DNA from: a virus
Virus genome (UHGV): UHGV-0191547
DNA: 26,648 bases
Reading direction: 5' to 3' (one strand)
Under the pieces are notes generated by a model. The model was not told the DNA's origin and did not search any database. It saw nothing but the letters and a program-made list of their open reading frames with translations. The translations under genes were made by a program, and so were the position numbers. Position 1 is the stretch's first letter, and every line of letters begins with the position of its first letter. This document shows, piece after piece, positions 584-18,552 of this stretch.

Positions 584-944
584 GATCGCGCGATTCAGCT
601 ACAAGGCATTAGCCACCATTTACCCCGTAACGCGTGACGACTGGACAAACTCCGATGTATACGGTGCACCATACCTGATTGATTGCTCATGGGAGCGCAC
701 AGACGGCACTGCAACAGACACAAACGGCAATGAGGTTAGCAATACAATAACTGTATTTACCGAACTGCTTCACAATATGCAGCCAGTGCAGCGCCCGGAA
801 AAAGGCTGGATGATTGCCACTGGCGACACCACTGATATTTCCGACCCGCTGGCGGCAGGTGCGAACGTTATAACCGGAATCGTTGAATGGGATATGAGCA
901 TGTTTAACGACACGCCGGATTATAAGATCGTGACAGGGGGTTAA
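576..944 (+). CDS. Head-tail joining / head completion-like protein (start chosen at MSKIARF)
   Basis: ORF 555-944; the ATG at 576 has a GGAG-containing RBS; positional assignment within the head-tail joining gene run. Confidence 0.4.
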   Translation: MSKIARFSYKALATIYPVTRDDWTNSDVYGAPYLIDCSWERTDGTATDTNGNEVSNTITVFTELLHNMQPVQRPEKGWMIATGDTTDISDPLAAGANVITGIVEWDMSMFNDTPDYKIVTGG

Positions 945-946
945 TC

Positions 947-1411
947 ATGCCTATCAAGGGTGTTAAACGTGTCAGGGAGCGATTAAAGCAGGAGCTAAAG
1001 GAAATCACAGATAAGAAAACTCATGAGGTGTTATGGCGAGTAGGGATGCTGGCTGGTGGCTTCGCGGCGAACATGACCCCCGTTGATACGGGTTTTTTAA
1101 TTAACAGCCAATTTCAGTATATAGGTAGCACGGCGGAGGGTATGCAGTTACGGCTGGGATATACGGCCCGGTATGCTGAATGGGTGCACAATATGCCAGG
1201 CACATTAAAAGGCCAGCCTCGCGAACATTTCGGGAAAACCAATAACCTTTCAGATTTCGGGCCGAAACAGGTAATTGAGTTCGGCGGCGGTACTGGAAAA
1301 GGTAAATATTGGGACCCAAACGCGGAGCCGGAATTTTTGCGCAAGGCATTCGAAGATCCAAACAACGCTGACGATATTTATAAAGAGATTGTAGAAGGTT
1401 ACAAAACATGA
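947..1411 (+). CDS. HK97 gp10-like tail component protein
   Basis: 154 aa; DTGFLINS motif and size fit the HK97 gp10 family; sits upstream of the tail terminator and tube genes. Confidence 0.55.
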   Translation: MPIKGVKRVRERLKQELKEITDKKTHEVLWRVGMLAGGFAANMTPVDTGFLINSQFQYIGSTAEGMQLRLGYTARYAEWVHNMPGTLKGQPREHFGKTNNLSDFGPKQVIEFGGGTGKGKYWDPNAEPEFLRKAFEDPNNADDIYKEIVEGYKT

Positions 1412-1794
1412 AACGCAGCGAAGTATACGACGAAATAAGGGATTGGATTAAATCCCACGGGTACGATGAAGGCTATATTTTGCAGGCCCGTTTCTGGAAT
1501 GAAAAATCCAATTCGAATAACGACCGATACATTGTTATCCAGCAAAACGGCGGCGCGGCTGGTGAGGAAGCAATAACCCGTGATTATTTCCGCATCCTGG
1601 TTATTTCGGCGCGTAATGATGCAAATATCAGTGAAGTGGAAGACCTTGCCGACGCCATCCGTCAAAGTATGTTAACAGAATATAAAACTGATAAAATTAC
1701 ACACATGAAGCCAGTTGGCGCTATTCCTGCAATGCAGACAAGAGAAGGGCGCTTTATTTTCACCGTAGCTTTTCAAACCATCATATCCAGATAA
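1408..1794 (+). CDS. Tail terminator / tail completion-like protein
   Basis: 128 aa; start overlaps the preceding stop (ATGA); position equivalent to lambda U. Confidence 0.45.
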   Translation: MKRSEVYDEIRDWIKSHGYDEGYILQARFWNEKSNSNNDRYIVIQQNGGAAGEEAITRDYFRILVISARNDANISEVEDLADAIRQSMLTEYKTDKITHMKPVGAIPAMQTREGRFIFTVAFQTIISR

Positions 1795-4289: not shown

Positions 4290-6629
4290 ATGGCTACCAG
4301 TGTAGGTACAATTTATTACGAAGTTGATGCAAAAACTGGTCAACTTCTCGTTGCACAACGACAGGCAGACCAGGCCTTTGACCGTATAGAGCGCGGCGCA
4401 AAACAGGCTGACCGCCAGGTAAACACCCTGAAAACATCCATCAAGGCACTGACCAGGGTTATCCATTTGCTAATTGCTGCCGAGGCTGTGCGCCAATTTA
4501 TGGATATGGCGGAGCAAGCCAAAATGCTTCGCGTAAAAATCAAATTGCTTACAGGTGAAGCGGAGGCAACGGAACGGGTTTTCAACAGACTGAAAGAAAT
4601 ATCAAAAGAAACAGGCCAAAGCCTCAAGGATACTGGTGCCCTGTGGCAAGGTCTTGCTATATCGCTAAAAAACACATCCGCCACAGAAGGCCAGGTGCTC
4701 AACCTGGTCAGCACGCTGCAAAAACTTGGTAACTTGGGCGGCGTGTCTGCGGAACAACTATCAAACTCCATGCTTCAGTTCCGCCAGGCTATTGATGCTG
4801 GCGTGTTGCAGGCGGAAGAGTTCAACTCAATACGTGATAACACCCCAACAATCATACAGGAAATGGCCCGACAGATGGGGTTATCTATGGGGCAGTTCCG
4901 CGCCGAAATGCTGGACGGCAAGATCACGGCTGAAAGGATGCTCAACGCGATCCAGGCGGCTACGCAGGAAACAAACGAGAAGTTTGCACAGTTACCGCGC
5001 ACGTCCGGTATGGCTTTTAATGAGCTTAAAGTCGAGGTGATGGGACTTGTCGAACAACTTGATGATCTTTTCGGCATATCAGATGGCGTTGTGTCAGCTA
5101 TCGACTTAATAACTGGTGGCGTTGAGGGATTAGGTAAAGGCGCAAAATTCGCCGCAACCTGTTTCAATACACTAAAAACGGCTGGCAGTGAGTTTATCGA
5201 CATGTTTGATGATGTTGCTGTTAAAGCTGGTGAGGTGGCGGAAGAGATTATCAGGATGGTAACGCCAATCAAAGCGCTAATGGATGGCTACAAATGGATG
5301 AAGGAGATCATTGATAAACGCAAGAATGAGCTAAACAGCAACAACGAAAAGAAATTCGGCCCTACAGTCGGTAAGGTCATGACGTTTGCAAATGACATCA
5401 AAAATGCGACCGCCGCTTATGATGAGTTTATGCAGAAACAGGGTGAGGCTGATGACGGCAAGATCACCGGATTCGATCAGCCAGTTGGCAAGCCGAAAAA
5501 AGGGAAAAAAGACAAGAAATCTGAAGCTGATCGGCTTGGTGATGAAGGCATAAAAGTATCCGACCAGTACAACAAAGACGCCGCAGCTATGCGCAAAGCG
5601 TTAGAGAACGGCAAGGCCATTGATGCTGCATTCGCCCAGGGTAAAATCACTCTCCTTGAGTACCGCGCCGCGCAAAAAGGGATAGGTAAGGAACTGAAGG
5701 AAGAATTAGCGCAAATTCCGGTAGATGAATTGCGTGATAAATGGGCGCAAATAGTAAGCCCGATGGATCAGCTTAAAGGTGAGGTTGACCCTATCCAGCA
5801 GGTGCAGAATGAATGGGCCGTCCGTAAGCAAATGCTTATCGACCTGGGCGTTACTGAAGCGCAACAGAAACAGGAACTGTTAGCCTATGAGCAACAGATC
5901 CGTGATCTGAAGTGGGAACAGTGGCAGGCACAAAGCGATACAAACGGCCTTATCGGTGATTGCGTTAATGGCCTAAAAGGTGGTATGAGCAATGCACTTG
6001 TTGGCCTGTTAAATGGTACTCAATCATTGAGTGATGTTTTTGCTAACTTAGGCAGCAATATCCTCGGGAATATCGGTAACAGGCTTTCAGACATAGCTGC
6101 AAACTGGATAGCAGATCAGATCATGATGGAAACGCAAAGCAAAGCGACTCAGGCAAGTACCACGGCGGGCGCGGTAGCGGCGCAAGGCCAGATTGCTGCG
6201 GCGGCGGCCCCGGCGGCGGCGGCAACAGCGGCGTCAACTGGCGGCGCATGGGCGGCGGCTGGTTCTGCGGCACTCACTGCGATCATGTCGCTGGCTACGT
6301 CAATTTTCGGCGGCGGTCGCTTTAATGGTGGTAGCGTTATTGGTGGCAATATGTACCGCGTAGGGGAACACAACAGGCCGGAGCTATTCCAGACATCTAA
6401 CGGAAATCAATATATGATCCCAGGCGAGAATGGCAGGGTTATTCCTGGGCGTGATATTGGCGGTGGCGGCGGCATTAGTATGCCTGTCAATATCAACATT
6501 CAGACCACAAACGGATTTAGCGACGAAGACAGTCGCAGACTTGAGCAAACAATGGAACGTGTAGCAATGAAGATGATAACAAGGGAATCACAAAGACCTG
6601 GAGGAATATTGCAACCGCGCCGCAAATAA
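4290..6629 (+). CDS. Tail tape measure protein
   Basis: 779 aa, alpha-helical N-terminal two thirds, Ala/Gly-rich low-complexity tract (AAAAPAAAATAAS), located between chaperone and gpM homologue. Confidence 0.9.
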   Translation: MATSVGTIYYEVDAKTGQLLVAQRQADQAFDRIERGAKQADRQVNTLKTSIKALTRVIHLLIAAEAVRQFMDMAEQAKMLRVKIKLLTGEAEATERVFNRLKEISKETGQSLKDTGALWQGLAISLKNTSATEGQVLNLVSTLQKLGNLGGVSAEQLSNSMLQFRQAIDAGVLQAEEFNSIRDNTPTIIQEMARQMGLSMGQFRAEMLDGKITAERMLNAIQAATQETNEKFAQLPRTSGMAFNELKVEVMGLVEQLDDLFGISDGVVSAIDLITGGVEGLGKGAKFAATCFNTLKTAGSEFIDMFDDVAVKAGEVAEEIIRMVTPIKALMDGYKWMKEIIDKRKNELNSNNEKKFGPTVGKVMTFANDIKNATAAYDEFMQKQGEADDGKITGFDQPVGKPKKGKKDKKSEADRLGDEGIKVSDQYNKDAAAMRKALENGKAIDAAFAQGKITLLEYRAAQKGIGKELKEELAQIPVDELRDKWAQIVSPMDQLKGEVDPIQQVQNEWAVRKQMLIDLGVTEAQQKQELLAYEQQIRDLKWEQWQAQSDTNGLIGDCVNGLKGGMSNALVGLLNGTQSLSDVFANLGSNILGNIGNRLSDIAANWIADQIMMETQSKATQASTTAGAVAAQGQIAAAAAPAAAATAASTGGAWAAAGSAALTAIMSLATSIFGGGRFNGGSVIGGNMYRVGEHNRPELFQTSNGNQYMIPGENGRVIPGRDIGGGGGISMPVNINIQTTNGFSDEDSRRLEQTMERVAMKMITRESQRPGGILQPRRK

Positions 6630-9404: not shown

Positions 9405-9458
9405 TCCATTTTGGTATGATTTAGCGTGACGCAGATCACAAAATCAGAAGGTGAGAAA

Positions 9459-10163
9459 ATGCGCAATATACCTACAGAGATGATTATTGATTCCGTGGAC
9501 GCTGGTGTGGGCGCGGTGATTGACTTGTTCGAACTGGACTTGTCGCCCCTGGGTGGCGAGGTTATCCGCTTCCATTCCGGCGCGAATGGCTATTACGGCC
9601 CGGTTATCTGGAAGGGATTAACTTACAACAGCTACCCGATCGAGGCTACTGGCTTCGAAATGAAAAACGAGGGCGTTTATTCGCGGCCTCAAATGGTTGT
9701 AGCCAATATCGGCGGGCTAATCACAGGGATGAATAACGACTTCAACGACCTGCGAGGAATGAAGGTTACGCGCCGCCAGGTGGAAGTAAAATACCTGGAC
9801 GCCGTTAACTTCCCAAACGGCAATCCAGACGCAGATCCATCTATTGAGGCTGTATCTTTTTACGTCGTGGAGGCCATGAGCGAGGAAACAGCGGATCAGG
9901 TGCAATATGAGCTGTCAACGCCAATTGATGCTGATAAGGCCGTTATCCCTGGGCGCACCATCCTTGCTGACGTTTGCCAGTGGCAATACAGAGGCGACGG
10001 GTGTATGTACGCTGGCGGACCAGTAGCAAACGATAAAGACGAGCCGACAAGCGATCCTAAAGCCGACAGATGCAGCCACCGTCTAAGCGGTTGTCGTTTG
10101 CGTTTCCCGCGTCCAAATCCGTTACCGATTTCCTGTTTCCCTGGTTCCAGTAAGGTAGGTTAA
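9459..10163 (+). CDS. L: Minor tail protein L
   Basis: Start at MRNIPTEM (RBS AGGTGAG); VTRRQVEVKYLDAVNF and PGRTILADVCQWQYRGDGC match recalled lambda gpL blocks. Confidence 0.85.
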   Translation: MRNIPTEMIIDSVDAGVGAVIDLFELDLSPLGGEVIRFHSGANGYYGPVIWKGLTYNSYPIEATGFEMKNEGVYSRPQMVVANIGGLITGMNNDFNDLRGMKVTRRQVEVKYLDAVNFPNGNPDADPSIEAVSFYVVEAMSEETADQVQYELSTPIDADKAVIPGRTILADVCQWQYRGDGCMYAGGPVANDKDEPTSDPKADRCSHRLSGCRLRFPRPNPLPISCFPGSSKVG

Positions 10164-10165
10164 TC

Positions 10166-10897
10166 ATGGTAATGGAAGACAAAATGTTGCGTTATGCCGC
10201 CGCGCATCCGTTTGAAGAAGTTTGCGGACTGGTAATAGATAACGAATATTTTTACCCGTGCGCTAACGTGTCTGAAACGCCCTACAACAGCTTCAAAATT
10301 TCGCCGGACGATTACATCAAAGCTGACGAATTGGGCGTTATAACCGCCGTTTTTCACTCTCACGTTGATGATATTCCGGTATTGTCGGCACGGGATCGAC
10401 AACAGCAGGTTATTTCAGGACTACCCTGGCTTTTGTATTCAGGCGGAAGGATCAGGAAATTCCGTCCGGTAGCGCACCTGTTAGGCAGAAAATTTGAACA
10501 CGGGAAAACAGACTGCTACGCGCTTTTCCGCGACGCCTATCACCTTTGCGGCGTGGATCTGCCTGACTTCGAGCGCCTTGATGGGTGGTGGTTGCGTGGT
10601 GAAAACCTGTATTTAAAAAACTTGCCTCTAAACGGGTTTTTCCAGGTTGACGCTAAAAGCATACAGCCTGGAGATGTAATTATCCGGCAGCCGTTTAAAG
10701 GCGCGGACCCATGCCACGCGATGATTTACCTGGGCGATAACACTGTTTTGCATCATGACAATGCCGGACTGCTAAGCCGCCGCGAGCAAATGCGGCCCGC
10801 TTATGTTCGACAAACGCATTCAATATGGAGATCTGATAAATGCTCAAATTTAGATTTACGGGCAATCTTCGAAGATATTACAGCAAAGTGTGTTTAA
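10166..10897 (+). CDS. K: Tail tip assembly protein K (NlpC/P60 plus JAB/MPN-like domains)
   Basis: FHSHVDD (JAMM-like) and GKTDCYALFRDAYHL (NlpC/P60 Cys) motifs; collinear with lambda gpK in my recalled alignment. Confidence 0.85.
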   Translation: MVMEDKMLRYAAAHPFEEVCGLVIDNEYFYPCANVSETPYNSFKISPDDYIKADELGVITAVFHSHVDDIPVLSARDRQQQVISGLPWLLYSGGRIRKFRPVAHLLGRKFEHGKTDCYALFRDAYHLCGVDLPDFERLDGWWLRGENLYLKNLPLNGFFQVDAKSIQPGDVIIRQPFKGADPCHAMIYLGDNTVLHHDNAGLLSRREQMRPAYVRQTHSIWRSDKCSNLDLRAIFEDITAKCV

Positions 10898-11370
10898 ACG
10901 TTGAAACGCCAGCGCAAGGACTTCGCTTGTTGACCGCGCAGAATCAGGAATTCAAGAAGGCGTTTTTAAATACACCTTTGCGTTTACGAATTTCCGGGAA
11001 AGATTACGACGAAAAGACCGCGCCCGCTGCGGTTAATAGCAAATATCCAGATGGGACTACGGTAATTATTGCGCCAATAGTGGAAGGTGGTATTGCAGGG
11101 ATCGGTGTGGTCGGTTGGATTATGATCGGAATATCAGTTGTTAGTGTCGCATTTTCTATTTTCATGTCTCGCAACATGAAGGTGAAAACATCATCAGAAA
11201 GCGCACAGGATAACACCATAACAAACAACAGTTACACCAGCATAGAAAACAGGGTGGGCCAGGGTAGACCAGTGCCAATTTTATTGGGTGAAATGAAAGT
11301 AGGTTCAAACGTCGGATCGTTAGGCATAGACACAACAAACAATAAAGACGCCTTAGACGTTGTAAGTTAA
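10840..11370 (+). CDS. I: Tail assembly protein I
   Basis: GEMKVGSNVGS matches recalled lambda gpI GEMRVGSRVVS; Gly-rich hydrophobic central segment; overlaps the K 3' end in another frame. Confidence 0.8.
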   Translation: MLKFRFTGNLRRYYSKVCLNVETPAQGLRLLTAQNQEFKKAFLNTPLRLRISGKDYDEKTAPAAVNSKYPDGTTVIIAPIVEGGIAGIGVVGWIMIGISVVSVAFSIFMSRNMKVKTSSESAQDNTITNNSYTSIENRVGQGRPVPILLGEMKVGSNVGSLGIDTTNNKDALDVVS

Positions 11371-11384
11371 CAGGAGAAATAACC

Positions 11385-14300
11385 ATGAGTAGCGGCGGCG
11401 GCAAAGCAAAAACACCAACTTTAATTAACGATAATCTATATCACAAACAGTTTTATCGTGTACTCGACATTATTTCAGAAGGTCCGATTTATGGTCCTGT
11501 TAATACCAATGCGCCATTAAACAGCGTAATGCTTAATGACACCCCTGTAACTGACGCGAACGGCAATACCAGCATCCCCGGTATTAGCGTAGCGTGGCGC
11601 AATGGTACGATAGATCAATCACCGATTAACGGTTTTAACGCCATTGAATCAACCGTTATTGTTAACGCACAGGTTAAACACGATACACCAATAATCAGGA
11701 CCGTTTCCGATCCTAACGTAAACCGCGTTCGCCTGAATATCGGCGTCGATTCACTTGTACAATCTGACGAGCAAAGCAATCAACATAACACATCGGTTAT
11801 GATGATGATTGACGTGAAGCCTTCGTCTTCTTCTACGTGGACGCTTGTTAAAGACGTTACTATAGGCCCAGGTAAGATCAGCGGAGAATATCTTGAAGCG
11901 CATATTATCAATGCACCAGATGAAAAACCGTTTGATATTCGCGTTCGCCGTGTAACCGCTGATAGCACAAGCGATCTGTTGCAGAATGATACGCGATGGA
12001 GTAGCTACAGCGAAATAATCGACGATAATTTGTCTTATCCTCACACCGCTGTAGCTGGCGCGGTAATTGACCATGATCAGTACGCTGACACGCCTACCCG
12101 CACCTATCACCTTCGCGGGCTGATTGTTGATATTCCTGATAACTACGACCCGGAAAAGCGCACTTATTCCGGTTTGTGGCTTGGCGGCTTCAAACAGGCG
12201 TACACCAATAACCCAGCATGGATCTTCCGCTATCTGGTTAAAAACGAGCGTTTCGGCCTTGCTCGTCACGCTGGCTATATTGACGTTGACGACGGCGCAT
12301 TATATACGCTTTCTCAATACTGCGACCAGTTGGTTGATGATGGCTACGGCGGCCTTGAGCCTCGCATGACGCTTAACGCTTACATCACAGAGCAAATGAG
12401 CGCCCGCGACTTACTGGACAATATCGCCGGGATGTTCAGGGGTATCGCGTTATGGGACGGGCAACGCCTTACCGTGATGATTGATGCACCACAAGACCCG
12501 ATCGCCACCATTACAAATGCAAATGTCGTTGATGGCGCGTTTACTCGTTCAAGTATCGCCCGCGCAGAATGCTACAACGCCGTGATCGTATCATGGACTG
12601 ACCCGGAAAACGGATGGGAGCAATCAAAAGAGTATGTAGCAGACGATGAACTGATCGCCCGTGATGGTTACAACGAAACCACGTTAGAGGCGTTCGGGTG
12701 CACATCACGCGGGCAAGCATACCGCGCGGGCAAGTGGCTGATAGAAACAGCAAAACGCGAGCCGTCAAAATTCACGTTTAAAATGGCGCGTGACGCGATT
12801 CACTTTACGCCAGGGGATATTATCGAGATACTCGACAATAACCGCGCAGGCGCTCGTTTAGGCGGCCGCATCGTTGCGAACAACGGCAAAGTAATAACGG
12901 TAGATAAGGTTGACGCCAATTATATCGCCGCTGGGGATACAATCAGCCTTCTTGATAGCGATGGCAAGTTTAAAAAGCATCAGATCACCGGGGTGAGCGG
13001 AAACAAAATCACACTGGCGGCGGCCCCGTCATGGATTCGAAACGGCACTGTTTTTGCTGTATCCACTGAATCAGCAAAACCCGTTTTGTGCCGGATCACC
13101 AGTGTAGCCGAAACAGAAAATAACAGCGTGTACACCATCGAGGCCGCACAGCACGACCCGAACAAGCAAGCAGTGGTCGATGAAGGCGCAATATTTGAAG
13201 TCAACAATGACACGCTTAACCATTTCCGCGTGCCGAACATTGAAAATCTGAAGGTGGTAAACATTGGATCGGAAACAATTCAATGTCGCGCCACATGGGA
13301 AACGCAGACAACAACGCATCGTATGACATTTGAGATCCGCATATATAATGCAGATGGTGCGGTGGTTAAAAGCTATGAAACAACGAAATACAGTTATGAT
13401 TTTTATGGCATTGACGCTGGCGTGTATTCTTTAGGGGTTCGCGGAAGAAATGACACTGGCATGAAGGGCGCGGAAAGTATTGTGGATCTGGTTATTGGTG
13501 CGCCAGCAGCGCCAATAGGTGTTAACTGGGTACCAGGTGTATTTCAGGCTACCGTATACCCGATAAGTAAGACAACGCTAACCACTGATACAGCGTATGA
13601 ATTCTACTATGCAGGGGAAAACCAGATCACAGATCCGGCAAAAATAACCACGGCGGCACAGTTTACCGGGCGCGGGTATCAGTGGACGTTCGGCGGAATG
13701 AACACGGGCCATACTTATTACGTTTATGTGCGTACACGTAATGCTTTTGGCGTGTCAGACTTCGTTGAAGCATCAGGTAAGCCGACAGAAAATTTTGATG
13801 AAATTAGCGATTACGTCACCAAAGACGTGATGAATTCCGAACAATTTAAAGAAATGGTGGGCGACATTAAGGATCTTGGCGATCGCACTGACATTATCGA
13901 AAGTGCAACTCAAGACCTTAAAACAGCTACTGATACCCTAAGCGGAATAACTGAAGGCTTAAGAACTGATACTGATAATTTAATTACAGAAACAGAATCA
14001 ATTAAAGCTGATACTGATTCCCTTAAAAAAGACACTGAAGACCTTTACAAGAAAGTCGAAGAAAACGCCGATGAAATAGGTAAACATGAGGTAAGAATTG
14101 ACTCATTAGAGGTATCAAGCGAAAACGTAGATAATGAACTGGCACAGACAAAAGCAAGCCTACAAAACGCATCGCTTGCTCTTATTAATAATTCGCTTGC
14201 TCAAACTAATACCAGAAGAACGCTGACAGCTCAGATCAAAAACGTGGATTATGAAACTAAGGCGCAAATAGATCGCATTGATAACGTGATTGTCAGTGAA

Positions 14301-16304
14301 AAAGAAGCAAGAGCGGAGGCAATGGAGACAATTACCGCCGAAATCGACACGATGGATAAAAACATCAAAGGTGAGATTGCGCGCGTAGATACTGCCATTG
14401 CCAATGAGAGCCAGGCAAGGGCTGATGCCATCAGTGAAGTTAGCGCAAACATTGACGCACTTGATAGTAAAACAGATGCCAGTGTTAATCGTCTTGATCA
14501 AGCTATCGCAGATGAGGCCAGCGCACGCGCACAGGCTATCAGCAATGTCAATGCGAGCATGACAAATCTTGATAACAAGGTTACAAGCAACGTTTCTAGA
14601 CTTGATCAGGCAATAGCTGACGAATCAAGCGCAAGAGCAGAAGCCGATGATCAGTTAATAGCAAAAAGCGAAAAACTTGATGGTGATCTCGCTATGGCAA
14701 GGGCAAGCCTACAAAACGCTTCGCTTGCTCTCATCAATAATACATTGTCTCAGACAAAGACAAGGCGCACTCTCACAGCGGAGTTCAAACGCGGACAAAG
14801 TGAAACTAAAGCACAAATTGACCGTATTGATAATGTCATTACTGACGAAAAACAGGCAACAGCGGAAGCGTTTGAAACTATCACAGCAGAAATGAACACG
14901 ATGGACTCAAACATTAAAGGAGAAATATCACGATTAGATAAAGTGATCGCGACTGAAACGCAAGCAAGATCTGAAGCTATAAGTAGTGTTAATGCAAGCA
15001 TAAAGACGCTAGAAAGCGACACTGAAGCCAGCGTTAACCGTCTTGATCAGGCAGTTGCTGACGAGGCCAGCGCCCGCGCACAAGCTATCAGCGGAGTAAA
15101 TGCAAGCATCAGCACGCTTGATAGCAAGGTTACAAGCAATGTGACCCGTATCGACAAAGCTATTGCAGATGAGACGCAGGCCCGCACAGACGCAATAAGC
15201 AACCTTAACTCATCGCTTACCAGTACGATTAATTCTAAAGTATCTGAAGTATCAACAGCACTTTCTACGCATGAAGCATCAAGCGCGGAAAAATTCAGCC
15301 AGATCTCAGCGTCTTTCGAAGCTGTAAACTCAAGCATCACGGAATGGTCGCAGACCATGACAACGGCGGACGAGGCATTATCAACCAAAATTGATCAGTT
15401 AACAGTAACCGTTAATGGGAACACAACAGCGATCGAGACGACATCGAAAGCGTTAACCGACTTCAAAGGTAATGTTGATGCGTCATGGTCAATCAAGATT
15501 GCTACTGATAACAACGGCATGAAATACGCTACAGGTATGTCGCTTGGCCTGACTGGTAGCGGGACTAACGTTCAATCGCAGTGTATTTTCCTCGTTGACC
15601 GCTTCGTGTTAATGACCGCAGCAAACGGCACATATACAACGCCTTTCTATGTGTCTAATGGTGCAATGTATGTGAAAGAAGCGTTTATTAAAAACGCATC
15701 AATAGGTACAGCTAAAATTGCAGATGCAGCCATTACTATGGCTAAAATTGTTAATGAAATAAAATCATCAAACTATGTTGCTGGTTCTAAAGGTTGGAGG
15801 ATAACACAAAGCGGATCATCAGAATTTAACGATGTTGTGGTAAGGGGCGAAATCCATGCTAATAGCGGTAAATTCAAAGGAACTGTAGAAGCTACATCCT
15901 TTGTTGGTGATGTCGCATCTACTAACGTTATACCGCAATCATCATTCCCTGGGACAAGTACAAGCGGATCTCGATCTGTTACGAAGACGTATAAAGATTC
16001 ATCATCAAGCTCGCTTTCGAAAACAGTTTTCGTAATGATTCCTTACCATCTTACTTATTATACTTATTCAGGATCATCAACAATAAAAGTAACAATTGAT
16101 ATTAATGGCAATAGCAAAACATATAACGTAGTAAGGGCGGCATCATCGCCTCAATTCGGATTTACGGTATCACATTGCGTAACTGGGATTACTGCTCAAA
16201 CAGTTACGATAAAAATAACAGAGGAATACACCAACACCGGAACATCAGCAGAAAGAAGGCCAGGTCTTGCACTTGTTACAAGAAGCTCAGGATCATGGTC
16301 ATAA
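11385..16304 (+). CDS. J: Central tail fibre / host specificity protein J with an expanded coiled-coil repeat region
   Basis: 1639 aa; N-terminal ISEGPIYGP, FGCTSRGQAYRAGKWL and the C-terminal KYATGMSLG...FLVDRF block match recalled lambda gpJ; about 500 aa of heptad-like repeats inserted between them. Confidence 0.9.
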   Translation: MSSGGGKAKTPTLINDNLYHKQFYRVLDIISEGPIYGPVNTNAPLNSVMLNDTPVTDANGNTSIPGISVAWRNGTIDQSPINGFNAIESTVIVNAQVKHDTPIIRTVSDPNVNRVRLNIGVDSLVQSDEQSNQHNTSVMMMIDVKPSSSSTWTLVKDVTIGPGKISGEYLEAHIINAPDEKPFDIRVRRVTADSTSDLLQNDTRWSSYSEIIDDNLSYPHTAVAGAVIDHDQYADTPTRTYHLRGLIVDIPDNYDPEKRTYSGLWLGGFKQAYTNNPAWIFRYLVKNERFGLARHAGYIDVDDGALYTLSQYCDQLVDDGYGGLEPRMTLNAYITEQMSARDLLDNIAGMFRGIALWDGQRLTVMIDAPQDPIATITNANVVDGAFTRSSIARAECYNAVIVSWTDPENGWEQSKEYVADDELIARDGYNETTLEAFGCTSRGQAYRAGKWLIETAKREPSKFTFKMARDAIHFTPGDIIEILDNNRAGARLGGRIVANNGKVITVDKVDANYIAAGDTISLLDSDGKFKKHQITGVSGNKITLAAAPSWIRNGTVFAVSTESAKPVLCRITSVAETENNSVYTIEAAQHDPNKQAVVDEGAIFEVNNDTLNHFRVPNIENLKVVNIGSETIQCRATWETQTTTHRMTFEIRIYNADGAVVKSYETTKYSYDFYGIDAGVYSLGVRGRNDTGMKGAESIVDLVIGAPAAPIGVNWVPGVFQATVYPISKTTLTTDTAYEFYYAGENQITDPAKITTAAQFTGRGYQWTFGGMNTGHTYYVYVRTRNAFGVSDFVEASGKPTENFDEISDYVTKDVMNSEQFKEMVGDIKDLGDRTDIIESATQDLKTATDTLSGITEGLRTDTDNLITETESIKADTDSLKKDTEDLYKKVEENADEIGKHEVRIDSLEVSSENVDNELAQTKASLQNASLALINNSLAQTNTRRTLTAQIKNVDYETKAQIDRIDNVIVSEKEARAEAMETITAEIDTMDKNIKGEIARVDTAIANESQARADAISEVSANIDALDSKTDASVNRLDQAIADEASARAQAISNVNASMTNLDNKVTSNVSRLDQAIADESSARAEADDQLIAKSEKLDGDLAMARASLQNASLALINNTLSQTKTRRTLTAEFKRGQSETKAQIDRIDNVITDEKQATAEAFETITAEMNTMDSNIKGEISRLDKVIATETQARSEAISSVNASIKTLESDTEASVNRLDQAVADEASARAQAISGVNASISTLDSKVTSNVTRIDKAIADETQARTDAISNLNSSLTSTINSKVSEVSTALSTHEASSAEKFSQISASFEAVNSSITEWSQTMTTADEALSTKIDQLTVTVNGNTTAIETTSKALTDFKGNVDASWSIKIATDNNGMKYATGMSLGLTGSGTNVQSQCIFLVDRFVLMTAANGTYTTPFYVSNGAMYVKEAFIKNASIGTAKIADAAITMAKIVNEIKSSNYVAGSKGWRITQSGSSEFNDVVVRGEIHANSGKFKGTVEATSFVGDVASTNVIPQSSFPGTSTSGSRSVTKTYKDSSSSSLSKTVFVMIPYHLTYYTYSGSSTIKVTIDINGNSKTYNVVRAASSPQFGFTVSHCVTGITAQTVTIKITEEYTNTGTSAERRPGLALVTRSSGSWS
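14154..15200 (+). repeat. Intragenic tandem duplication in J (two diverged units of about 550 bp, roughly 183 aa each)
   Basis: Both units open with GCAAGCCTACAAAACGC (14154 and 14704) and contain nested VNRLDQA(I/V)ADE(A/S)SARA sub-repeats. Confidence 0.8.
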
Positions 16305-16335: not shown

Positions 16336-16584
16336 TTAGTAGTTAGCTACACAATTCGACGGGCTACCTATGCGGCGCATGTTGTGATCGAGTTCATGAC
16401 ACCATTGACCAGTATATGGCAGTTTTTCAGTGTCATATACAAGATGACCATTAGCATCATAGACGATTTCTTGTGGAATCACTCCGCTATTTGGCAGGTT
16501 ATGCAATGCAGCTTCTTTGTCAACAGCGCAACCAGTAAGAGCAACAGCCGCAGCGAATAAAACCACTTTGAACATGTTTTTCAT
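16336..16584 (-). CDS. Small lipoprotein (82 aa), antisense cassette D between J and the tail fibre
   Basis: MKNMFKVVLFAAAVALTGC signal peptide with lipobox A-L-T-G-C; single gene between two terminators. Confidence 0.6.
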   Translation of the reverse strand: MKNMFKVVLFAAAVALTGCAVDKEAALHNLPNSGVIPQEIVYDANGHLVYDTEKLPYTGQWCHELDHNMRRIGSPSNCVANY

Positions 16585-16761: not shown

Positions 16762-18552
16762 ATGATTTATACAACGGGAACAATTGCCATTAACGGCAAT
16801 ACTGTTACAGGCACGGGAACAAACTTTTCCGCGCCGCTTTCTCTCATCCGTGTAGGTTGCACGCTCATTGCCATTAGCAATCCTATCCAGATCTTTACCA
16901 TCACAGAAATTAAGAGCGGTACTGAACTGTCAGTGACGCCAGCGGCTAACCCTGCAATTGCTGCCGGGGCAAAATTCAGCATTCTGCTTTCTGACTCTAT
17001 CTCAGTTGATGGGCTTGCCCAGGATGTAGCGGAAACACTTCGTTTTTATCAGGAAAAAGAAGACGAAATATCCAGCGCAATAGATGGCAGCAATATTGGC
17101 TTAGGTCCAGAGCCGCGCGATTGCGTCGATATATCAGGCGATCCGTCTTCTTACGTTGGCTTTTTGCGCATAAAGGAAACGACTAAGGGTTTTCCTTCTG
17201 TAGCGGCTGGTGAATCATTTTTGAGTGGATTTATCTGTCAACGAGACACGACGCCTTCATATACAGGCGTCTTTGTCGGTTGGGCTACGCGATCACTTTA
17301 TACGTATACATGGGTCGCAACATCAGGTCCGAACTGGACACGACACGCAAGAAAAGATGAGGTGGATAGGCTTGTTCAAAGAACAGGAGAAACTCGCGTA
17401 CGCGCTCAAAACGCAAATAAATTCCTTACCGTCTATGATTCAGGATCGTGGGGTTATTATGACTCAGAGGCTAGTAAATGGCTACCGCTTCCAGTTCTTG
17501 CTGGAGGCACTGGTGCGGGAAACGCAGAAGAAGCAAGAAATAATTTAAATCTTGGTGAAAGCAACGCGGTTAAATTCAAAAACCTTACGTTAATAGGGGC
17601 GCTAGATGCAAATTTAGGCATGCTCGTAAAAACTGGAAGAGACTGGAATACTCAGCACACTGACAATATCCAAAAATTTATACCAATGGCAGGAAGCACA
17701 AACGGACCCGCCGGAGCAATGGTACTCGGTGGCTTCCATGTGCAATACAGCACAAATTACGCTGTGCAATTCGGGGGTCGAAATTCCGGTTTTTGGGGTA
17801 GAACAATTGAAAACGGAACAGTTCAGGAATGGCGTCAACTAGCTACGCTTAACACATCCGGTCAAAAATGGACTGCCGGTCAGCATTTTGTGACGACAAA
17901 AATTAACTCTTATGATTTCACAAGACGTTTAACTATCGATGTGATAGAAAACGCAAAAACAAACGCACGGTTACGCTTATGGGGATCAGAAACAAGGCAG
18001 TCCGTTTTAGAATATGGACTCTCGAACGCTGAAACCGATGAGTATAATACATATGGCTTTTATTGCCAGCTTAACCCAGACGGAGTAATTAGTTTTCAGG
18101 TTAACGGCGTAGTAAACTGCACAGCAGTTAATCAGACTTCAGATCGCGATCTGAAGGACAACATTCAGGTTATAGGTGATGCAACTGAAGCAATCCGTAA
18201 AATGAACGGGTACACCTACACCCTCAAGGAAAACGGCCTGCCTTACGCTGGCGTTATCGCTCAAGAGGTAATGGAGGCGCTGCCGGAGGCTGTGGGATCG
18301 TTTACTCATTACGGTAAAGCATTACAAGGCCCGACCACTGACGGCAACGAGCTACGCGAGGAAACGCGTTACCTCAATGTTGACTACGCTGCGGTGACTG
18401 GTTTACTTGTTCAGGTGGCACGCGAAACAGATAACCGCGTCACCGAACTGGAGGAAGAAAACGCCAGCTTACGAGCTAACATTGCCGTCATGGATGAGCG
18501 GATCACAAAACTTGAAGCGCTTGTCAGGCAGTTAACCGGAAGCGAAGAATAA
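16762..18552 (+). CDS. Tail fibre/tailspike protein with C-terminal intramolecular chaperone (peptidase S74-like) domain
   Basis: 596 aa; C-terminal TSDRDLKDNIQVIGDATEAIRKMNGYTY...YAGVIAQEV followed by a coiled coil is the S74 autoproteolytic chaperone signature. Confidence 0.75.
   Translation: MIYTTGTIAINGNTVTGTGTNFSAPLSLIRVGCTLIAISNPIQIFTITEIKSGTELSVTPAANPAIAAGAKFSILLSDSISVDGLAQDVAETLRFYQEKEDEISSAIDGSNIGLGPEPRDCVDISGDPSSYVGFLRIKETTKGFPSVAAGESFLSGFICQRDTTPSYTGVFVGWATRSLYTYTWVATSGPNWTRHARKDEVDRLVQRTGETRVRAQNANKFLTVYDSGSWGYYDSEASKWLPLPVLAGGTGAGNAEEARNNLNLGESNAVKFKNLTLIGALDANLGMLVKTGRDWNTQHTDNIQKFIPMAGSTNGPAGAMVLGGFHVQYSTNYAVQFGGRNSGFWGRTIENGTVQEWRQLATLNTSGQKWTAGQHFVTTKINSYDFTRRLTIDVIENAKTNARLRLWGSETRQSVLEYGLSNAETDEYNTYGFYCQLNPDGVISFQVNGVVNCTAVNQTSDRDLKDNIQVIGDATEAIRKMNGYTYTLKENGLPYAGVIAQEVMEALPEAVGSFTHYGKALQGPTTDGNELREETRYLNVDYAAVTGLLVQVARETDNRVTELEEENASLRANIAVMDERITKLEALVRQLTGSEE

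Follow-up and report, generated by a model that had tools for sequence, protein, structure and literature searches.

The central tail fibre of phage lambda, gpJ, carries below its FNIII-2 domain a three-helix bundle, the alpha-helical shaft (AHS; residues ~809-861), which clamps the FNIII trimer (PMC11101478). When LamB is bound, this AHS flips, residues 841-861 become beta-strands atop the beta-prism fibre, and the tube is opened (PMC11101478). In the F7 pyocin, the AHS is shown to switch to a beta-prism on firing; the tip is thereby opened and the tape measure ejected, and Gln substitutions at small-residue positions prevent the switch (PMC12874032). Each strand there carries the pattern SxSxxMxxLxS, whose direction follows the direction of the strand; Asp or Glu at the M positions is paired with Arg at +/-4, and a proximal 'spine' (818-921) is free of the motif (PMC12874032). 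Using a multimer model, the same study predicted a switch in 21/24 siphophage central fibres (PMC12874032). Among phages of the mEpimmI group, J proteins are reported to vary in size, with 'repeats of different length (positions 950-1475)' (PMC11893012, 2025). Here we examine gene J (11385..16304, + strand), which encodes the central tail fibre or tip attachment protein in a 26,648-nt stretch of the virus genome UHGV-0191547; this whole stretch is called the window below.

The J protein of the window has 1639 aa, and its AHS appears to be expanded by repeats. We believe that this repeat-built expansion probably forms a modular trimeric shaft that extends the reach of the fibre and retracts by fold switching. 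The trimeric state, the actual length and the switch mechanism in this phage are what we infer by analogy with the systems above.

The insert in J and its helical shaft

The gene was assigned from its open reading frame (ORF) and the Pfam GpJ domain set. Five GpJ domains score above their cut-offs in canonical order, lambda gpJ (PDB 8iyk) matches with an E value of 3e-184, and residues 1-850 are 38% identical to lambda J. When the protein is set against the 1132 aa of lambda J, window residues 1-850 align to lambda 1-857, and window residues 1346-1535 align to lambda 841-1025. At the edges of the extra segment, window 781-850 pairs with lambda 788-857 without a gap and window 1346-1418 pairs with lambda 841-913, so that lambda residues 841-857 match both edges. 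The extra segment thus amounts to a single clean insertion, about 512 aa long, at one point. Because both of its edges align to lambda AHS residues, the insert, as judged from these alignments, expands the AHS about ten-fold, to about 565 residues (about aa 802-1366) where lambda has 53.

The sequence-only reading from which we started had placed an insert, missing from lambda J, between a conserved N-terminal region and a conserved C-terminal block, and both the lambda alignment and the Pfam domains on either side (the hub and FNIII part and the C-terminal block) bear this out. Two points go beyond that reading: the insert expands an existing functional element, the AHS being the trigger element in lambda, and the variable J repeats of this phage group are already in the literature (PMC11893012). 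Pfam returned no domain for J aa 812-1348, and the insert alone gave only sub-threshold coiled-coil noise.

Within the insert lies a direct repeat, arranged in tandem, whose period is 549 nt (183 aa). By blastn, positions 14117-14593 match 14666-15142 at 72% identity (E 3e-70), and in the protein self-alignment residues 913-1091 match 1096-1274 at 69% identity over 179 aa without a gap (E 5e-83). The ORF and both self-comparisons agree with the earlier claim of a 1639-aa J that carries a tandem duplication. That claim had given the period as 550 bp, with boundaries at 14154 and 14703; the spacing of these boundaries is right, but they are shifted in phase by 37 nt relative to copy 1 (14117..14665) and copy 2 (14666..15214), both on the + strand and both 549 nt long. 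Copy 2 is 68-72% identical to copy 1 in nucleotides and 69% identical in amino acids. It had been said to run to about 15200; it is a complete copy and ends near 15206-15214.

Each 183-aa block consists of a leader of ~39 aa (ASLQNASLALINN..TRRTLTA..) followed by four units of 36 aa (108 nt). The units start at aa 960, 996, 1032 and 1068 in the first block and at aa 1143, 1179, 1215 and 1251 in the second, and each one is recognised by a unit hidden Markov model (HMM) with an E value between 1e-18 and 1e-21. The nested sub-repeats that had been noticed are thus real, and the VNRLDQA string occurs twice, at aa 1034 and 1217.

The shaft begins with a proximal segment (aa 812-924; 13818..14156, +) that aligns without gaps to lambda 788-857. 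It starts as the equivalent of the lambda AHS helix and then enters a heptad zone from about aa 834, where rows of xTDxLxx (Thr at position 2, Leu or Ile at position 5) form seven consecutive heptads; this segment is a candidate for a non-switching 'spine'. It is followed by leader 1 (aa 925-959, SLQNASLALINNSLAQTNTRRTLTAQIKNVDYETK; 14157..14261, +), array 1 with four units (aa 960-1103; 14262..14693, +), the second leader copy or leader 2 (aa 1104-1142; 14694..14810, +) and array 2 with four more (aa 1143-1286; 14811..15242, +), the limits of both arrays being set by the unit HMM. A post-array helix (aa 1287-1366; 15243..15482, +) ends in the equivalent of lambda 841-861. Asn layers and a register shift were considered for the leader, to which no clean register could be assigned.

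No proline occurs in aa 812-1348, and the proline-free stretch measures 619 residues in the window versus 125 in lambda and 247 in T1. Hydrophobic residues recur with a period of 3.61 in both arrays (36 residues in 10 turns) and of 3.54 in the heptad zone; a control on the hub gave no such peak, and in the leader the spacing is irregular. The consensus of 156 distinct units is hydrophobic at positions 3, 6, 10, 21, 24, 28 and 31, while the remaining core-like positions hold an invariant Glu13 and, in 83% of units (129/156), Arg17. A 3-4-3-4-4 spacing is found twice per unit, giving two 18-residue (7+11) halves. The Kammerer trimerisation motif R-h-x-x-h-E does not fit the unit.

A single-chain AlphaFold2 (AF2) model of aa 709-1639 is helical between residues 819 and 1337 except for breaks of low confidence at 902-914 and at 1124-1131 (TKTRRTLT, in leader 2); its predicted template modelling score (pTM) of 0.26 makes the topology unusable, and we took only the secondary structure from it. 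With 48 aligned homologs, AF2 returned aa 1180-1338 as one unbroken helix at a predicted local distance difference test score (pLDDT) of 91-97, followed by the beta-rich prism. When a profile was built to span the final three units, the helix after the arrays and the prism, it matched the F2-pyocin fibre (25vf_A) with an E value of 5e-35, colinear over pyocin residues 914-1191. When the profile was confined to the shaft, T1 gp33 was the best PDB match (E 1.5e-8), the pyocin was matched modestly at 914-1081 (E 2e-4, 24.6 bits), and no other PDB coiled coil scored below E 0.3. The last ~2.5 units of array 2 align to the F2-pyocin AHS, and the stretch that aligns best to its coil (1011-1081) is the post-array helix of the window.

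By analogy, three J copies should form a parallel three-stranded coiled coil, a trimer stoichiometry that is established only for lambda, T1 and the pyocins. We estimate that the shaft would measure ~77 nm if fully extended (519 helical residues x 0.148 nm). As the sequence-only reading had proposed, this region of J is likely alpha-helical coiled-coil material that lengthens the central fibre: it lies within the three-helix AHS of lambda and, distally, shows homology to the AHS of the F2 pyocin.

A fold-switch signature and competing readings

The shaft contains 26 matches to the fold-switch motif, versus 6.9 +/- 2.6 in residue shuffles (z = 7.3; 0/2000 reach 26). Array 1 alone has 9 matches where 1.7 are expected. 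Their density is 6.2 per 100 aa in the arrays versus 0.2-0.5 per 100 aa in the hub, the tape measure and the side fibre, and the heptad zone has none. The motif is placed regularly, with the reverse form at unit positions 1-11 in 131/156 distinct units and the forward form at positions 16-26 in 152/156. Its small-residue positions, which lie outside the coil core, vary less (0.74 bits) than either the core (1.10) or the remaining non-core positions (1.73). In T1 the motif matches cluster in the repeats of the fibre, and the lambda AHS has none. A plain coiled coil does not explain why small residues outside the core should be conserved, whereas a requirement to adopt two folds would. Because of this conservation, we suggest that each unit might become one beta-hairpin and that the shaft might thereby retract.

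The window J has a fixed order of heptad zone, leader, four units, second leader, four units, terminal helix, beta-prism and receptor-binding domain (RBD). In the mechanism that we propose, the long trimeric coil would hold the receptor-binding tip far below the tail tube and would be metastable before receptor binding. Once the receptor is bound, the shaft would refold, with the prism already present as the seed and each unit turning into one beta-hairpin. The fibre would thereby become several-fold shorter, the FNIII clamp would be released and the opened tube would arrive at the membrane, such that the number of units would set both reach and stroke. A bolder version, which we offer only tentatively, is that the shaft is a naturally expandable fold-switch spring, in which each 36-residue unit is one helix-to-hairpin module, and in which reach and stroke or energy are tuned by the number of units (1-13) independently of the receptor. 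If this is true, mEp515 (5 units) and mEp021 (13), which use the same receptor, represent a ready-made allelic series for adsorption, triggering and host range.

Several observations weigh against a long trimeric shaft that retracts by fold switching. The sole transmission electron microscopy report gives heads of ~60 nm and tails of ~130 nm, and a long tip fibre goes unmentioned there (PMC11893012). Both AF2 runs, made on single chains, returned helix only. A deeper alignment brought no shift towards beta, but a single chain cannot form the prism, so we do not weigh this last result against the switch. The shaft-only match to the pyocin coil is, at 24.6 bits, a modest one. The motif itself is degenerate and made to fit coiled coils, and an Ala-rich coil with an 18-residue period could match it without ever switching; residue shuffling destroys periodicity and is therefore a lenient control. 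Glu13 and Arg17 sit at coil-core positions outside both assigned motif instances, and the pairing feature is thus matched loosely. Lambda and T5 operate without an extensive switch (PMC12874032), so the mechanism is not universal among J-type fibres. Finally, a switch over 442 residues would exceed the largest demonstrated so far by a factor of 2.7.

A serious competitor, which we nevertheless consider unlikely, is a passive spacer. Here the shaft would be a stable three-stranded coil that sets the distance between tail tip and RBD, for example to get at outer-membrane proteins through O-antigen or capsule, that never refolds, and that lets the tube come to the membrane by bending at hinges such as the leaders. 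The evidence for helicity and homology fits this idea equally well. The helix-only AF2 runs favour it, as does the fact that lambda and T5 fibres bend without an extensive fold switch (PMC12874032), and the only internal breaks in the AF2 monomer fall just ahead of leader 1 (902-914) and inside leader 2. We also compared a family set of 42 complete J proteins, made up of that of the window, five from GenBank phages and 36 from IMG/VR loci, in which the number of units is coupled neither to RBD type nor to side-fibre length. There are 1-12 units in the RBD cluster of the window, 5-12 in the mEp010/mEp013 cluster and 4-13 in the mEp021/mEp515 cluster, and such independence from RBD type is as would be seen for a simple length parameter. 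However, a spacer leaves unexplained why small non-core positions are conserved above the hydrophobic core, why the motif occurs twice per unit in alternating orientation, and why the distal shaft is homologous to a segment whose switching has been demonstrated. Moreover, signalling and contact between tube and membrane would be hard to account for if a stiff rod of ~77 nm separated the trigger (prism and RBD) from the FNIII clamp.

Less probable again is a docking platform, in which the leaders are kinks or attachment sites for side fibres or accessory proteins, and in which one or two leaders provide one or two tiers. This possibility is compatible with a switch as well as with a spacer. There is a precedent in the F2 pyocin, whose PyoF13 side fibres attach at a kink of the AHS through six-helix bundles (PMC13455828). 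In all 42 J proteins a leader stands ahead of every array, with two arrays per protein at most, and the leader is the most conserved element of the shaft. Its irregular hydrophobic spacing would also suit such a role, as would the lack of detectable similarity between the N-terminus of the window's side fibre and the N-terminal collar domain of lambda Stf. However, AF2 predicts leader 1 as a continuous helix. Leader count is uncorrelated with the downstream fibre genes, and the pyocin kink needs a Gly that the leaders do not have.

It is highly improbable that each block packs against the other in a fold-back, whether as an antiparallel helical hairpin or as a six-helix bundle, so that the duplication would thicken rather than lengthen the fibre. 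The AF2 monomer does break its helix between the blocks, and six-chain coiled coils made by fold-back are known in lambda Stf (PMC12617516), but the topology of a model with a pTM of 0.26 carries no weight. Relatives with single arrays (4, 5, 6, 8) or unequal pairs (9+3, 8+3, 5+2, 4+1) could not pair in this manner, and such a fold would bring the prism and RBD, on the three-fold axis, back to the tail tip.

Age of the duplication and variation among relatives

When aligned in register, the two blocks of the window are 68% identical in DNA; by codon position, identity is 78% at the first, 87% at the second and 40% at the third. With pS at 0.74, synonymous sites are saturated; dN is 0.23 and dN/dS is about 0.06. 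The longest exact run common to both blocks is 17 nt, and no exact repeat of at least 18 nt occurs anywhere in the insert. An independent contig, IMGVR_UViG_2617270943_000003 (L007), has the same 4+4 layout, its blocks are 98-100% identical in amino acids to those of the window, and the sole difference in length between the two J proteins is one heptad. Given the saturated synonymous divergence, the low dN/dS, the 17-nt maximal run and the match to L007, we judge from the sequences that the duplication is old and that both copies are kept by purifying selection.

Many database homologs are 'partial' and start inside the repeat region, where short-read assemblies often break, but there is next to no chance that the duplication is an assembly artefact or a very recent product of slippage, because its copies are only 68-72% identical in DNA (~30% diverged) with saturated synonymous sites and share no run of more than 17 nt, both copies keep an intact reading frame and are under purifying selection, and L007 repeats the 4+4 layout at 98-100% amino acid identity. 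Among database proteins P0004-P0009 and P0136-P0166, a large share is labelled 'partial', with the N-terminal end inside or just past the repeats. J lengths and unit counts taken from draft assemblies are therefore untrustworthy, since short-read assemblies commonly break in J.

The repeat had also been described as prone to slippage or recombination. This does not hold for the window allele, whose DNA copies are far from the near-identity seen in contingency-type loci, and which appears to provide little substrate for slippage or homologous recombination. It does hold for the family. Near-identical DNA copies are present in some relatives, with exact repeats of 151 nt in L021 and 95 nt in L024. 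The J genes of L021 and L015 are 100% identical in DNA save for one 108-nt unit, and the 151-nt exact repeat of L021 lies at that offset. Recent gain or loss of a single unit thus happens in this family.

Across the family set, J proteins range from 1318 to 1813 aa and carry 1-13 units of the 36-aa type in 18 architectures (1, 3+1, 4, 4+1, 5, 6, 8, 4+3, 5+2, 4+4, 5+3, 5+4, 5+5, 8+3, 8+4, 7+5, 8+5 and 9+3). Among the shortest are L046 and L048, which use another repeat type, so that their '1 unit' counts the 36-aa type only. In these two IMG/VR proteins, aa about 960-1200 form a shaft of different repeats, for example ..LESKVNDEISANVTELQQTIATLESSTSQSIEK.., and evidently the shaft can be assembled from more than one unit family. 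The first unit mostly starts at aa 939, 946, 953, 960, 967 or 981, which are exact steps of 7, and pairwise alignments place 7-aa indels in the heptad zone. This zone is a second, independent length-variable module of the shaft.

The J gene of the window is a mosaic. Its hub is nearest to that of MagusPhagus, while from about aa 950 to the stop codon it is 96-100% identical in DNA to L007, and the recombination junction between hub and shaft falls in the heptad zone or leader 1 (nt ~14084-14234). The conserved leader may act as a joint at which hub and receptor-binding modules are swapped. The gene evolves through indels of whole heptads, indels of single units and exchange of whole arrays at the conserved leaders.

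Homologs were sought more widely as well. A word-indexed search with the insert was dominated by low-complexity candidates and gave at least 26 matches, mostly fragments, while an exhaustive search of representatives gave 111 families, part of which were scanned. The 183-aa block also matches the stalk of a trimeric autotransporter adhesin with a YadA anchor (P0042, 1834 aa; E 1e-14), which is a hint of a trimer-type coil and nothing more. Another match to the block, P0028, is a GpJ-family protein of 1922 aa in which the gap between FNIII-A and Phage_Tail_Tip is longer than that of the window. The J fragments P0003, P0004 and P0006 carry a precomputed Pfam PF28217 assignment upstream of Phage_Tail_Tip, and this may be a newly curated model for the shaft region.

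Setting of gene J and comparison with known systems

On either side of the shaft, J has the expected domains. The hub with FNIII and Ig domains (aa 1-811; 11385..13817, +), whose nearest relative at the nucleotide level is MagusPhagus, comprises the Pfam domains FNIII-A_GpJ (aa 88-214), Phage-tail_3 (aa 335-492), Ig_J (aa 609-707) and Ig_J_second (aa 709-811). Distal to the shaft lies the central straight fibre (CSF), a beta-prism (Phage_Tail_Tip, Pfam E 4e-36; aa 1349-1496; 15429..15872, +) that aligns to the lambda CSF. The C-terminal receptor-binding region (aa 1497-1639; 15873..16301, +) is beta-rich in the AF2 model (pLDDT 70-90) and belongs to RBD cluster 2, in which the window groups with MagusPhagus and L007, apart from the mEp010/mEp013 and mEp021/mEp515 clusters. 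LamB is used by mEp010 and mEp013, and OmpA by mEp021 and mEp515 (PMC11893012). Three antisense ORFs of 90-113 aa inside the repeats (14160-14501, 14750-15022 and 15047-15388, - strand) most likely arise as a side effect of the coding sequence on the other strand, which is repetitive and poor in stops.

The gene occupies its usual place in a tail module. PHROG matches upstream of it identify homologs of the tape measure (TMP, 4290-6629), L, K and I, with minor tail proteins at 9426-10163 and 10166-10897 and a tail assembly protein at 10840-11370. A 567-nt gene is located between I and J in mEp021 and mEp515 (loci L005 and L004, 2442-3008), where it is annotated as a putative HNH endonuclease in the former and as hypothetical in the latter; no such gene is present in the window (11371-11384), MagusPhagus, mEp010 or mEp013. 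Downstream of J are a small lipoprotein gene on the minus strand, then a side fibre and an integrase. The lipoprotein gene (82 aa; 16336-16584, -; phrog_12984) comes directly downstream of J but on the opposite strand, and occupies the place that the tested Lpp superinfection-exclusion lipoproteins have in mEp021 and mEp010 (PMC11893012). The side fibre (596 aa; 16762-18552, +) has a Peptidase_S74 intramolecular chaperone domain at aa 460-511, and given this domain its C-terminus is probably self-cleaved.

By sequence similarity, the window belongs among the temperate coliphages of the mEpimmI group. Its identity to MagusPhagus is 94.5% over 86% of the window, and to mEp010, mEp021 and relatives it is 84-86%; nucleotide identity to mEp021-type phages is 84-94% across 44-86% of the first 25 kb. 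The exact J of the window is absent from complete E. coli genomes and GenBank phages, where the best match is 88%, and a scan of genome contigs turned up no relative.

Taken alone, the feature in the window is an ordinary and already noted property of this phage group. We believe its wider value lies in an open field, namely how non-contractile tails find receptors through surface polysaccharide and gain the force and proximity to open at the membrane. Unit number differs among near-identical, cultivable phages with known receptors, and comparison of natural alleles could therefore serve to study shaft length, the energy stored and how the trigger is transmitted. The fixed grammar of the shaft (heptads, leader, 36-mers) and the recombination joint at the leader also matter for annotation and engineering, since they mark where hub and receptor-binding modules can be swapped.

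The closest relatives are the mEpimmI J proteins (mEp021, mEp010, mEp013, mEp515, mEp044 and mEp554, together with MagusPhagus), which share the architecture and the repeat units of the window J. In the window, too, variable-length repeats lie between a conserved N-terminal part and a conserved stretch that precedes a variable terminus. The published account of these proteins, which includes detection of mEp021 J in virions by mass spectrometry, gives no unit definition, helical nature, link to the AHS or function (PMC11893012). The 4+4 layout is found in no named phage of the 42-protein set, only in L007. In lambda gpJ (PDB 8XCI/8XCK), the AHS occupies the same slot in the family, between FNIII-2 and the beta-prism fibre, but it has 53 residues without repeat units or any match to the fold-switch motif, whereas its equivalent in the window has ~565 residues. 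T1 gp33 (PDB 9L9P; PMC11945409) is J-like and has, at 891-1009, four units whose IAxETxAR core is the same as in the window, two of them exact tandem copies. It differs from the window in that its units are of 33 rather than 36 aa, are four in all and come with no leader and no heptad zone, in a much shorter shaft. The repeat region of gp33 was too flexible to resolve, and AlphaFold3 predicts an alpha/beta-helical fibre of ~37 nm (PMC11945409).

The F-type pyocin central fibre (F7: PMC12874032; F2 PyoF10: PMC13455828, PDB 25VF) is a homolog of J whose 'exceptionally long' AHS has been solved as a coiled coil with three strands, and it is homologous to and colinear with the distal shaft and prism of the window. 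Both have the SxSxxMxxLxS pattern; an acidic residue with Arg at +4 occurs in the window as well, where it fits the pyocin pairing loosely. The proximal segment of the window that lacks the motif has about 100 residues and corresponds to the pyocin 'spine' (818-921) both in where it lies and in how long it is. The pyocin switch region has 163 residues and is not described as regular repeats, whereas the candidate switch region of the window has about 442 residues made of near-identical 36-aa units and two leaders. The pyocin central fibre also has no C-terminal RBD on the same protein. Thus, variable J repeats in mEpimmI phages are already published, as are long AHS coils with a fold switch for the pyocins, which has also been predicted for phages. 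To this we add a definition of the unit and its grammar, the position of the insert inside the AHS, an age for the duplication together with the selection acting on it, a series of copy numbers, the joint for recombination and a link to the fold-switch signature. A switch from coiled coil to prism was first described in 2026, for the pyocin alone, and this phage group holds a candidate for a modular form of it.

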